Counted from the first letter of the stretch, positions 805 to 7,984 are shown. The stretch is 64,000 bases of DNA from a virus (IMGVR_UViG_3300027710_000009); one strand, 5' to 3'. The notes: generated from the letters alone by a model not told the origin. Translations and numbers: made by a program.

Positions 805-1687
805 GGAGGACTGAGAATACATCTCTCCCATAAGCACCTCAAGCATTATTGTACACCTTGCGAGCGTACTTTCTCTTGACTTCCACTCGGGTCCTTGCGG
901 ATCTCCTAGTCTGCTTACAGTATCGCCGTTTTTAACGTCAAGCAGTAGACGTGTCATCATATGCTATTCTGCGGATTCCATTCCGTTAGCCTTGCGAGCT
1001 ATTCAGGTGCGCTAACACCTTACGAACCCCCCTCCACAAACTAATGTCACCTTGCGAGCTTCATTAGACTTGATTCACTTGCGTGTCAAGTATTAGATAC
1101 TTTTCACATATGACCGAGGCAGTCTTTGCGTTTTTGTAATGATAGTTGGGATTTGAACCCGACTGCATCCAGCTTAAAAGGCTAGCGTTCAACCATTGAA
1201 CTTTATCAACCTACCGTGATGAGCTACCTCTGTTGCTATATAATCTTTTGGACTACATAATACAACTCACCACATACCTTTCCTCTTGCGGAGTAATCAG
1301 TGATGTTTCACGACCAGTGTCCTGCTTCAAAACAGTCCACCACCCATTAACATTGCACACGAGCCCTTGGGTGCAACCCCTCGAACCAATATACTACCCT
1401 TTCTCATACCTGTTGACAAGTTGGTTTTGTATGGAAGTCAGCACCACCTGTTACTTTTCATGCACCCTGGTTCCCTTACGGGCCAGTCGATACACATTCT
1501 TCCCCATACACTTGCTTCACAGTTACAACCACCGGTCTTATCAGTGATCGCTACCTTGCGATAGTGAGCAGGCTTGTTTACATGAACCATCTCTGGCGCA
1601 GGAGTGTAGGACTCATCTGCTTTGGGTAGGTCACCCTACTTATTCTTCGTAGACGGCAAGCCGCCTACAGGACAATAAACTGCCCCG
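801..1687 (-). ncRNA. GOLLD-like giant structured RNA
   Basis: ~890 nt without a credible ORF inside a tRNA cluster; at least 7 C(GCAA)G tetraloop hairpins on the minus strand; internal tRNA-like domain; AGGTGGTGCTG and 3' TGTATTCTCAG motifs that I recall from GOLLD; ends in CCACCA. Confidence 0.8.
1140..1208 (-). tRNA. tRNA-Lys(TTT)-like domain embedded in the GOLLD-like RNA (no CCA, short acceptor stem)
   Basis: D arm GTTC/GAAC; anticodon arm CTAGC-CTTTTAA-GCTGG; T arm GGG-TTCAAAT-CCC; closing stem only TGATA/TATCA. Confidence 0.7.
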
Positions 1688-2296: not shown

Positions 2297-2391
2297 CTGC
2301 TTTTTTAACATGTTGCAAAAATACTACACTGGTTGTTGACTTTGCAACACTTACAGATTCACAGTCGGTAAGTCATGTTCGTCCAATGTAG

Positions 2392-2455
2392 GTATCAAAG
2401 CACTCTTCATGGATGAACCCACTTGTCCCCTCGCGGGTAGAGAATGCTTTGATAC
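2392..2455 (-). ncRNA. Stem-bracketed small RNA cassette 4
   Basis: 15-bp stem GTATCAAAGCATTCT/AGAGTGCTTTGATAC, related in sequence to the cassette 1-3 arms; inner hairpin ACCCGC-GAGGGGACAA-GTGGGT. Confidence 0.5.
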
Positions 2456-2575
2456 GTTACCATTTTACCATCTGCGTTTCCACCACAGACTTCTCATCCG
2501 GTAAGCCGCCCACATTAATAGCCGATGTTTTGAGTGCCAGCAGGGTCGCGTTCCCTATACACACTTTTCATGATC

Positions 2576-2614
2576 CTAAAAACAAAAAACCCCAGGGTTT
2601 TAAGCCTAGGGTCC
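2576..2614 (-). terminator. Intrinsic terminator (attenuator)
   Basis: ACCCTAGG-loop-CCTGGGGT followed by TTTTTGTTTTT; its left arm can alternatively pair with 2654-2665. Confidence 0.8.
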
Positions 2615-2639
2615 TTGGAGTTTGCTGAGTTAATTTGTG

Positions 2640-2780
2640 TTAACTGTGCGAGTCTCCTGGACCCTTGGTGCCTGGTAGTGTGCGATCATTACTAATCTCA
2701 GTCGCAGACCACAAGGCCACTGGCATAAATGAATATGCTTGGCTATGCTGTTTGCAGTTGAGAACGAATGTCGGTTTCAT
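2640..2780 (-). CDS. Putative attenuator leader peptide, 46 aa (MKPTFVLNCKQHSQAYSFMPVALWSATEISNDRTLPGTKGPGDSHS)
   Basis: AAAGGA SD with a 12-nt spacer; promoter directly upstream; 3' codons overlap the antiterminator strand; below the ORF-track cut-off. Confidence 0.65.
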   Translation of the reverse strand: MKPTFVLNCKQHSQAYSFMPVALWSATEISNDRTLPGTKGPGDSHS

Positions 2781-2834
2781 TTTGTTTCTTTTTCCTTTGA
2801 TACTCAGTACATTATTGCACTGTGTAAGTCTTGT

Positions 2835-2863
2835 ATTGTAGAGATATTTAGCAATGCTGTCAA
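2835..2863 (-). promoter_or_regulatory. sigma70-type promoter with an embedded TAAATA late box
   Basis: TTGACA-gcattgcTAAATAtctc-TACAAT. Confidence 0.8.
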
Positions 2864-3094: not shown

Positions 3095-3155
3095 ACGATC
3101 ATCATAAAGATGATATTCGTAATCGGCCTATGTAGAATGGAGTGTTCATGTGTGT

Positions 3156-3184
3156 ACTATAACTTGAATATTTATTTATGTCAA
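3156..3184 (-). promoter_or_regulatory. sigma70-type promoter with embedded TAAATA boxes
   Basis: TTGACA-17-TATAGT. Confidence 0.7.
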
Positions 3185-3658
3185 CCGCGATTCTTCAATT
3201 TCTAACCAGGTGTGGTCACCCATGTATTTCACTTGCGTTTGGTATTCGTAGTCTTCGGGTGCAGAGCTTGACCAATCGTTAGGCCCATGGTGTGTCAGTA
3301 GAACATGTTGTTTGCGCTTGTCCCAGACCAACCAGTAAGTCTGGCCCATCACAGGACTGAACTGATATACAGCGGCATGCACTGCATCTGTGACATCTAG
3401 TCGTCGTTTGATTGACTGTGCTTGTTTTTCCAGTACTGAGACCAGTTCCATGATCCTGTCGTACTCTTGCTGGGCATACATCCTAGCATGGTTGATCATG
3501 AGATCTTTTTGCTGTGTAACGGGCACAAGATCAAACTTGGGTCCACCTGCTTCAGTTGGGTAAGGTGTTACATTACGATTAAAAAACGGAATAATCCCGC
3601 CTGTGGTGGTAGAGTCATAACTGTCTCTGCCCTTGGCTAGGTTTGATTTTTTTTCCAT
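3176..3658 (-). CDS. Conserved hypothetical protein (DUF2452-like)
   Basis: 160-aa ORF; YPTEAGGPKF motif, coiled coil, FSPVMGQTYWL; family from recall. Confidence 0.6.
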   Translation of the reverse strand: MEKKSNLAKGRDSYDSTTTGGIIPFFNRNVTPYPTEAGGPKFDLVPVTQQKDLMINHARMYAQQEYDRIMELVSVLEKQAQSIKRRLDVTDAVHAAVYQFSPVMGQTYWLVWDKRKQHVLLTHHGPNDWSSSAPEDYEYQTQVKYMGDHTWLEIEESRLT

Positions 3659-6677: not shown

Positions 6678-6920
6678 TTAGTCTTCTTCGCCGTCGTCAA
6701 AGTTATCTTCGTCAACTTCCTCATCGTCATGGAAGTATTCTTCGCATGAACGTTGAAGATATGAGTCGCATCCAGAAAATGCCTTAAGGTCTTTTTCGGA
6801 TATACCATCCATATCGGTTAGTATACTAAACAAATGGTCTGCCACCGCCTGGCGATCTTTTGAGCTAATGTATTCTTTCATTACTCCATAAGTTTCGCAC
6901 AAAACTTCTACATCAATCAT
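6678..6920 (-). CDS. Hypothetical acidic protein
   Basis: 80-aa ORF coupled to uvsX (ATGA overlap). Confidence 0.7.
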   Translation of the reverse strand: MIDVEVLCETYGVMKEYISSKDRQAVADHLFSILTDMDGISEKDLKAFSGCDSYLQRSCEEYFHDDEEVDEDNFDDGEED

Positions 6921-7984
6921 TCTACTGGTTCCTCTTCTGATAATTGGGCAGTAACCACGTGATGTGGATTCTTTACAAAGTCCTCCATGACCTTGTCTAG
7001 TGAACTGTTTTCATTGCGTTCCCAAGCCTTGCGAAACTGCTTGATAACTGTGCCATCGCCCAGGGTGTATTTAAGACTGTTGCCTTCTTTGGTCAATAAA
7101 CCTTTTGCTTCCAACATGTCTGTCATGCCCGAGTATGGACTCATGCCTGACTCATATGGAATCTTGACCTGTACTGATTCAAACGGTTTAGCATAACGAG
7201 TTTTCATGACCTTGCAAGCGGCACGAATACCTTTTACTTCTGAAATCTTGTTGCCGTCTTCGTCTTCCTTCAGTTTCAATTTACGCATGGCAACCACAAT
7301 TGAGCTGGCATAGATAAAGCCTTGTCCACCACTGATTTTATCATCTGGATCAAACATGTCCTGACTTGCATAAGTGTGATTTGTACAAACCAAACCTAAA
7401 TTCAAATCGCCAAACATGTTAACACAGTTTCTTACTAGAGCAGTAAGTGCTTTGGGTTTACGACCAAGATCGCCTTTCATTTCACCTGCTTCAAACTGAT
7501 TCACGTCAGTTGGAGTAAGCAACATGCCCAAGCTGTCAATAACAAACAGCACCTTAGGACGTTCTGTTTCAGGAATAGTTTTGTATTCCTTTACAAAGTC
7601 TGAGATAACTTTGGCCAGGTCATCGATCATGGCCATGTTCAACTTGAGCAGTTTGTCGTCTGTGGTTTGTACACCAAGAGCATGCAACCACTTTTCATCC
7701 AGTGCGTTTTCACTATCTACCAAGATAACATAGATACCTTGATCTTGTGCGTTCTTAATCAAATTGCCCGAACAGATAAAAGATTTGCCTGCACCTGATT
7801 CGCCAGCAAACACAGTAACTTTGCCCATTGGAATACCTCGATCAAAGGCTCCAGAGATCAGATAGTTTAGTGTGTAGTTGCCTGTGCTGATCCATGTGTC
7901 GGGATCTTTGAAGCCAACACTGATACCGTCAATGCTTTTTGTAATTGATTTTCTAAATTTACTTACGTCAAAAGGTTTTGCCAT
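6917..7984 (-). CDS. uvsX: RecA-like recombinase UvsX
   Basis: Walker A GESGAGKS; DSENALD; VIDSLG; ISGGQG. Confidence 0.95.
   Translation of the reverse strand: MAKPFDVSKFRKSITKSIDGISVGFKDPDTWISTGNYTLNYLISGAFDRGIPMGKVTVFAGESGAGKSFICSGNLIKNAQDQGIYVILVDSENALDEKWLHALGVQTTDDKLLKLNMAMIDDLAKVISDFVKEYKTIPETERPKVLFVIDSLGMLLTPTDVNQFEAGEMKGDLGRKPKALTALVRNCVNMFGDLNLGLVCTNHTYASQDMFDPDDKISGGQGFIYASSIVVAMRKLKLKEDEDGNKISEVKGIRAACKVMKTRYAKPFESVQVKIPYESGMSPYSGMTDMLEAKGLLTKEGNSLKYTLGDGTVIKQFRKAWERNENSSLDKVMEDFVKNPHHVVTAQLSEEEPVE

Follow-up and report, generated by a model that had tools for sequence, protein, structure and literature searches.

A candidate ribosome-dependent attenuator with a leader peptide containing all 20 amino acids, upstream of a structured RNA in an uncultured phage

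The DNA analysed here, referred to as the window, is a single strand of 64,000 nucleotides (nt) from a virus (IMGVR_UViG_3300027710_000009), and the element under study lies on its minus strand at 2576..2863. The element contains a promoter, a short leader open reading frame (ORF), two competing hairpins and an intrinsic terminator, and it is followed by a conserved structured RNA, here called ncRNA-X (Table 1). An initial annotation, made from the sequence of the window, had described the promoter, a Shine-Dalgarno (SD) sequence with a 12-nt spacer, an ORF of 46 codons and the terminator, and all of them were found at its coordinates on the minus strand. It had further proposed that these parts form an attenuator in which a leader peptide sampling 40 codons gates transcription toward a cluster of tRNA genes and the GOLLD RNA. 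The arrangement of leader, antiterminator and terminator has held up, as the layout is conserved in 45 DNA copies of the family and the cargo has no promoter of its own, whereas the pan-codon scope and the tRNA/GOLLD target have not.

Table 1. Positions of the features of the window (positions counted on the whole stretch)
Feature	Position	Strand	Details
Sigma-70-type promoter	2835..2863	-	TTGACA (2863-2858), 17 nt, TACAAT (2840-2835); 11/12 consensus matches
5' stem-loop at transcript start	2801..2826	-	RNA fold; in homologues other letters, hairpin in the same place
SD-like AAGGA	2793..2797	-	in A-rich stretch, 12 nt upstream of ATG
Leader ORF	2640..2780	-	46 sense codons + TAA (2642-2640); MKPTFVLNCKQHSQAYSFMPVALWSATEISNDRTLPGTKGPGDSHS
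Nucleotide-invariant core	2702..2726	-	ATGCCAGTGGCCTTGTGGTCTGCGA; codons M19-A26 + first base of T27
Segment 2, antiterminator 5' arm	2654..2665	-	AGGGTCC-A-GGAG; codons 39-42; 11 nt before stop
Apical hairpin containing the stop codon	2629..2644	-	GTTAAC...TTAAC; GTTAA kept in 11 close homologues
Segment 3	2608..2620	-	CTCC-AA-GGACCCT; pairs with segment 2, or with segment 4 as terminator 5' arm
Intrinsic terminator	2578..2616	-	stem-loop 2616-2585 + U tract 2589-2578 (TTTTTTGTTTTT)
ncRNA-X, conserved structured RNA, cargo	2317..2576	-	about 260 nt; ends in hairpin 2391-2324 + TATTTTT
GOLLD RNA	808-1273	-	Rfam, 198 bits against gathering score of 150
DUF2452 protein gene	3176-3658	-	160 amino acids; flanked by two pairs of tRNA genes
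Five near-consensus sigma-70-type promoters	3866, 3184, 2863, 2296, 2194	-	TTGACA-17-TAnAnT

Judging from its homologues, the unit is a member of a large family in uncultured freshwater jumbo phages, with a single member in the window. A search with a 23-mer of the core gave 10 viral loci, a 19-mer search gave 12 matches (five true metagenome loci and seven unrelated), and a divergent branch (L012 and L016) came from a scan for small ORFs. Predicted proteins searched with profiles yielded 25 and then 143 peptides, 120 of them among the matches listed, and alignment of the commonest subfamily gave 40 further loci with DNA. The final set comprised 45 distinct ORF sequences with DNA context and 157 unique peptides of 41-53 amino acids (median 47), after 14 N-terminal extensions introduced by gene callers had been trimmed to an internal Met. 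An exact 24-mer of the segment-2 region had no match in viral contigs, two of the leader peptides, searched by tblastn in deposited phages, had no credible match there, and Pfam and PHROGs held no informative family for the leader peptide.

The layout of the unit is conserved throughout this collection. A promoter of the form TTGACA-N17-TAnnnT lies upstream in all 45 distinct DNA copies, and the terminator was detected in 44 of them by a script pattern. Almost every copy likewise retains, at the 3' end of the ORF, a segment able to pair with the 5' arm of the terminator. The expectation that homologous loci would carry a conserved ORF was borne out, as the ATG and the frame are retained in 45/45 copies. 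All 11 close homologues are free of stops when read from the aligned ATG, and their two alternative frames contain 0-2 and 3-8 stops per sequence; insertions and deletions within the ORF have lengths divisible by three, or are offset by another within about 25 nt, which brings the frame back. When ungapped columns were shuffled (20,000 trials), all 11 frames were open in 0.2% of trials and at least 10 in 0.7%; with all columns shuffled, no trial of 5,000 left every frame open. At the eight columns with a conserved amino acid, variation is distributed over the three codon positions as 11/15/40, mostly in Pro and Arg codons. The 5' end exists in two forms. The hairpin and the A-rich stretch are present in 25 of the 45 copies, and in the other 20 the ATG stands at most 12 nt past the -10 box, so that a nearly leaderless mRNA would be expected from them; these 20 copies, which have no 5' leader, still keep the reading frame. 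In the window the ORF starts 54 nt past the -10 box.

The leader of the window encodes all 20 amino acids, each about 1-5 times and mostly 1-3 times. All 20 are also present in 121 of the 157 unique peptides; 31 peptides have 19 and five have 18, the absent residue being Cys (25), Val (7), Leu (4), Trp (3), Gln (1) or Phe (1). After clustering at 60% identity 24 of 32 representatives were complete, as against 6.0 ± 2.0 (maximum 14 in 2,000) when residues were shuffled within alignment columns with the make-up of each column kept, a test that is confounded by shared descent. Cys occurs in 25 of the 32 representatives and is spread over 21 different alignment columns. Its presence at different positions in many lineages, as read from the alignment, is itself the signal despite shared descent. 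None of the representatives lacks His, Phe, Tyr, Asp, Lys or Val, each of which 12-28% would be expected to lack. By chance 4.6% of random peptides of the family's composition, and 2.4% of those from uniform random codons, would be complete, and among windows of the long minus-strand ORFs of the window 0.33% contain all 20. The number of complete peptides, the excess of complete clusters over the shuffled ones and the wandering Cys thus show that completeness is kept at the amino-acid level, far beyond chance. This family-wide completeness supports the core of the idea that the leader could sense any shortage.

The leader had been picked, post hoc, for its codon count, and it stands at the top of its family in this respect. 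It uses 40 distinct codons in 46, the repeated ones being ATG, AAA, ACA and AGT (twice each) and CCA (three times). The count is real and is extreme for the window: 30,939 stop-free 46-codon windows in the six frames have a mean of 27.3 and reach 40 at the leader locus only, and 15,934 windows from 37 long minus-strand ORFs, taken as the genes of the window, have a mean of 26.8 and a maximum of 37. The expectation of 32-33 distinct codons was likewise reproduced, uniform sampling of 61 codons giving a mean of 32.5 with a standard deviation (sd) of 2.2 and a probability of 5.6e-4 for at least 40. Across the 45 related ORFs the count is 32-40, and three of them share the top value of 40, those of the window (P 0.005), L128 and L130. 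The excess of codon diversity in homologues that a pan-codon leader would predict was not found, because the number of distinct codons given the peptide is, over the 45 non-independent ORFs, on average just 0.65 sd above uniform synonyms; against the codon usage of the phage it is 1.77 sd above. The leaders ignore the codon bias of the phage, a pattern that fits weak selection for diversity and, equally, an absence of selection for efficient codons. We rejected codon diversity as a trait of the family: when a conditional null randomised just those positions at which a sequence differs from a relative, the close homologues were ordinary (P 0.17-0.98) and the group of the window alone stood out (0.001-0.004).

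The end of the ORF and the terminator can fold into alternative hairpins. The complementarity between 2665-2654 and 2620-2608 is as described initially. The two structures had been called mutually exclusive, which is right for GGACCCU, as it can pair either way; in the window's own fold, however, the long hairpin also pairs CCAGG (2674-2670) with the 3' arm of the terminator. The hairpin of segments 2 and 3 (2:3) taken alone (2668-2606) has a predicted energy of -23.4 kcal/mol (z -7.1); for the terminator the value is -15.9. In nascent RNA ending at 2598 the core hairpin, in which the core of free RNA pairs with 2692-2671, forms together with 2:3, and RNA beginning past segment 2 folds the terminator. 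Read-through is therefore the predicted default in the absence of a ribosome, and termination would require a ribosome at the stop codon, 11 nt beyond segment 2. The transcript folds far better than its shuffles in 11/11 homologues, with z between -2.9 and -7.0. Among 38 distinct sequences the 7-bp core of 2:3 is paired in 97.7% of cells, its outermost pair being GC in 18, AU in 16 and GU in one, and unpaired in three; the terminator stem is paired in 96.2% of cells, and the covarying base of segment 3 meets G or A there. On a tree of the ORF body the GC and AU states are interspersed, and of the independent pairs three changed in the same way, none in the opposite way and two were unchanged (p 0.25). 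The best comparative support for a switch is the divergent branch L012/L016, in which segment 2 reads GGGGUG, segment 3 CACCCC and segment 4 CCGGGG with the layout unchanged.

A trp-like 1:2 pairing of GGCCUUG with CAAGGGUC, proposed by RNAalifold, was tried and rejected, as it is not the preferred fold of the window; in L090 the core has a separate partner of its own. In L144 (1465-1623) a deletion fuses segment 2 to the 3' arm of the terminator and the ORF continues over the U tract; it apparently arose by recombination between complementary repeats.

The RNA that follows the terminator, ncRNA-X, is an undescribed RNA with strong covariation, 26 of its 36 predicted pairs showing compensatory changes. 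Rfam gave nothing in 2292-2863 at E <= 1 when 6 kb were scanned, and a scan of 631 nt gave chance-level matches only (E 0.55-6.6), far under the gathering scores. In the loci examined, ncRNA-X was found downstream of the leader only. It follows directly after the terminator in 19 of the 45 copies, and in 23 a gene of 51-58 amino acids (65 in one) comes first and ncRNA-X next; of the remaining copies two were left unclassed by the script and one has no terminator by its pattern. The U tract and ncRNA-X are 10-30 nt apart, and the SD and ATG of the small gene stand 15-19 nt past the U tract in most copies. Such short gaps therefore leave no room for a separate promoter of the cargo. As for the tRNA/GOLLD cluster that was thought to be gated, ncRNA-X ends in a hairpin and U run of its own and the promoters at 2296 and 2194 come next, and so the unit would gate ncRNA-X: this RNA is the direct cargo here, and the cluster would be gated at most indirectly. 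The caveat in the initial annotation that two further promoters downstream would limit direct control was thus well placed.

The small gene (for example L107:1716-1877, and 22 other loci) has a strong SD and the motif HTLT..Q..KLI..K.ERA; it is absent from the window, and Pfam and PHROGs gave no function for its protein in the relatives. In L133, L134 and L146 the first ~190 nt of ncRNA-X are immediately followed by tRNA-like sequence, and tRNA genes may be the direct continuation of the unit in these loci. A DNA-like contig of run X5 has 154 other letters in place of the middle of ncRNA-X (2333-2469).

Metatranscriptome contigs were also considered. Among the runs listed as holding part of 2250-2900, 21 of 24 are on record as RNA; eight runs were compared, as assembled contigs only. 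The terminator is crossed, with at least 31 nt on each side, by contigs of five of the seven RNA runs (X1, X2, X3, X4 and X8), and RNA contigs reach across it into ncRNA-X. One contig each of X2 and X8, from relatives, runs over the terminator into the start of the small gene. Read-through RNA exists. For X1, X2 and X3 the contigs stop at 2820 and have no loose ends there, while the DNA-like run X5 continues through the promoter, a weak hint that the transcript starts near 2820-2828; the contigs of X7 and X9 pass through the promoter too. Absence of RNA cover at the promoter (2840-2886; X1-X4 and X8) and over the protein gene at 3122-3300 (all RNA runs) carries no evidential weight.

We give a slightly better than even chance to the explanation that the leader with all 20 amino acids is a ribosome-dependent attenuator, in which a leader that is not translated to its end would release transcription into ncRNA-X. 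The leader ORF would be translated, and a ribosome reaching the stop codon (2642-2640) would cover segment 2, so that segments 3 and 4 could form the terminator. If the ribosome halted before about codon 34, or if there were none, segment 2 would be left free; the more stable 2:3 hairpin would then form first and the polymerase would continue into ncRNA-X. As each amino acid is present in the leader, the unit would be expected to turn on when almost any charged tRNA runs short or when translation fails in general. A broader proposal, that freshwater jumbo phages possess in this way a universal decoding gauge in which the loss of any charged tRNA or a collapse of translation flips an RNA switch driving a module, is more tentative, and we put it somewhat short of an even chance. 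Selection would here preserve one or more codons for every amino acid in a leader of ~47 codons. The triggers would be starvation, host anticodon nucleases and other tRNA-targeting defences, and the module would consist of the structured RNA, the protein of 51-58 amino acids and, in some relatives, tRNA genes.

Several observations weigh against such an attenuator. The SD is weak: AAGGA lies 12 nt ahead of the ATG and some homologues lack it, and 18 of the 41 long ORFs of the window have GGAG, GAGG or AGGA closer by, at 4-10 nt before the ATG. Only 28 of the 121 complete peptides are complete by one residue past NDR, which is approximately the last stall position that would leave segment 2 free, although this number exceeds that obtained by shuffling residue order (9.7 ± 3.1). 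Residues are often supplied by the tail alone (Glu 69, Val 22 and Gly 7 times), and Gly occurs in the leader of the window solely at codons 37, 40 and 42. In the minimum free energy fold of the window the base of the long hairpin reuses the 3' arm of the terminator beside the U tract, and by this model the 'on' state might still terminate. Covariation had been looked for in both helices, and in 2:3 one pair, the GC/AU pair, was all that was found. L110 and L111 differ by the entire 3' module, so that recombination, besides point compensation, moves the states of this pair; the switches are not clean independent compensations, and 3' modules seem to be exchanged by recombination. Contigs of two of the seven RNA runs (X7 and X9) stop at 2611 and 2629, and the contigs give no read-through ratio. 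With regard to the peptide, variable sites in the close set fall on the codon positions as 23/25/21, with no excess at the third, and minor-allele counts over all columns of the 45 ORFs are 521/564/568. The core ATGCCNGTGGCCTTGTGGTCTGCGA is nucleotide-invariant, variation among close homologues being limited to a Pro third position, and a codon-degenerate scan found no synonymous variants of it and added four unrelated loci. Two frames are used to read the conserved block CAAGGGTCCAGGAGAC, which gives ..KGPGD in the window but ..RVQET in the L083 group. Because of the invariant core, the block read in two frames and the missing third-position excess, constraint at the RNA level must dominate; our reading of these alignments is that the frame has to stay open, yet most of the peptide would be invisible to selection.

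Some of these points would suit a translated leader that senses nothing. Translation could set a fixed ratio of terminated to read-through RNA, or unfold or stabilise the RNA, and completeness would serve something else. The architecture would be identical to that of the attenuator, the crossing of the terminator in five of seven RNA runs took place without known stress, and many of the residues that make the set complete are encoded in the tail, too late for a stall to leave segment 2 free. Such a leader is unlikely in our view, as the strong selection for all 20 amino acids and the Cys at 21 columns would go unexplained by it. If on the other hand the 46-residue peptide were itself the product that matters, the locus would be a small-protein gene of the usual kind, transcribed from a promoter of its own and ending in a leaky terminator, which agrees with the conservation of the motifs MP..W and NDRTPE at the amino-acid level, with synonymous change by codon position at Pro (0/1/17) and Arg (0/0/13) codons and with the prediction of 143 such proteins by gene callers. 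A wandering Cys and an all-20 composition would be unexpected in a folded protein of 46 residues, however, and there is no codon periodicity in the N- and C-terminal thirds; one conserved stretch of nucleotides is translated differently, in two frames, neither Pfam nor PHROGs has a matching family, and the cargo relies on read-through of the terminator of this gene. We therefore take this explanation to be rather unlikely.

The ORF could also be a by-product, and the element an untranslated 5' domain of a single structured RNA of ~510 nt made up of the leader and ncRNA-X. That the two always occur together in the loci examined, within an island of non-coding RNAs, would be in keeping with this, as would the fold scores of all 11 homologues (z -2.9 to -7.0) and the nucleotide-invariant core. 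It is nevertheless a quite improbable account: an open frame is maintained (P about 0.002 or less), both kinds of 5' end retain the ATG, the presence of all 20 amino acids has a meaning in the reading frame only, and in 23 of the 45 copies a protein gene with a strong SD separates the two parts. Arrest peptides such as TnaC and SecM, which stall the ribosome, offer another comparison, and the motif FMPxxW ... NDRTPE might likewise cause a stall on one specific signal. M19/P20, W24, N31 and R33 hardly vary, if at all, within the family and the motif ends 3-5 codons ahead of segment 2, but the same positions are conserved as nucleotides and paired in predicted helices, and the 20-amino-acid completeness is left unexplained, which makes an arrest-peptide sensor very improbable.

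The window appears to derive from an uncultured jumbo phage. Its UvsX/RecA-like protein (355 amino acids, 6917-7984, minus strand) has matches of 60-69% identity, these being in Vibrio phage 2.275.O, Sinorhizobium phage Phosso, Agrobacterium phage Atu_ph07, Cronobacter phage GAP32 and relatives. When the region was searched for near and distant DNA similarity against deposited phages, tRNA-Leu was the only shared DNA. The unit is situated in an RNA island on the minus strand, from 3870 down to 300, with eight tRNA genes and the GOLLD RNA, inside which a tRNA model matches at 1137-1210. The 755 nt between GOLLD and tRNA-Leu (2028-2104) contain no tRNA gene and no Rfam match, and the ORFs there overlap each other in several frames on both strands. 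Of the five promoters of the island four begin with TTGACAGCA, and the promoters split the tRNA/RNA island into short units; past each of those at 2296 and 2194 comes a short stretch with a hairpin, upstream of tRNA-Leu. ARAGORN predicted a tRNA-Ile of 90 nt with anticodon TAT at 2910-2999 on the minus strand, where the Rfam tRNA model gave none. The DUF2452 gene has 537 relatives in IMG/VR; five of the 80 loci taken have the leader element by nhmmer, and the leader unit was present in just 7/80 of these loci.

Attenuators of the trpL, hisL, pheL and thrL type have runs of cognate codons in the leader and control the matching biosynthetic genes. The phage element resembles them in its short leader ORF, which is translated there, in the alternative hairpins, in a logic of ribosome position and in a cargo without promoter. 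It differs in that no codon occurs more than three times and runs are absent, and in that the cargo is a non-coding RNA; in trp the absence of a ribosome results in super-attenuation, whereas read-through is predicted here from the fold. In leaders of the erm, vmlR and bmrCD type drug-bound ribosomes stall at specific peptide motifs. What is shared is the two-hairpin logic, whereby the off-structure fails to form if the ribosome stalls anywhere in the leader, but these leaders respond to drug-bound ribosomes and many act on translation rather than termination. We know of none that has been described as complete for the 20 amino acids.

A full-text literature search returned, as far as titles and the beginnings of abstracts go, no paper that describes a phage leader with all 20 amino acids and none on attenuation ahead of phage tRNA or non-coding RNA genes. 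The initial remark that a sensor of this kind was not known to be described holds to the extent that no paper on the family was found, but it overlooks the attenuator of the whiB7 upstream ORF (uORF), which senses many shortages through single codons and which is the closest known system. According to a preprint (bioRxiv 10.1101/2023.06.02.543512), in M. smegmatis the uORF of whiB7 codes for all amino acids except Cys, loss of its single Trp codon or of its His codons abolishes the matching starvation response, and hits for 18 of the 20 amino acids activate whiB7; the uORF is Ala-rich and varies by species, the M. tuberculosis version being without several amino acids. Both systems have a uORF of broad amino-acid content and an antiterminator/terminator pair upstream of the cargo. 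The whiB7 uORF is cellular and enriched in Ala, whereas the leaders studied here are from phages, have 6.6% Ala and keep completeness (121/157). The cargo of the former is a transcription factor; that of the latter is a structured RNA with or without a protein of 51-58 amino acids, and no WhiB7-type ORF lies downstream. The two were compared by features, and no sequence relationship was looked for or seen.

If the proposal is true, this would be the first attenuator with a leader kept complete for the 20 amino acids of the genetic code, the first switch of this kind in a virus, and the first case in which the cargo is a non-coding RNA module beside phage tRNA genes. At ~290 nt and with promoters of the sigma-70 type, the element is testable in a laboratory strain, and it could serve as a compact reporter of decoding stress. 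For large phages it would provide a handle on how they control their own islands of tRNA and non-coding RNA genes, including the neighbourhood of GOLLD, and on how they sense host attacks on translation.

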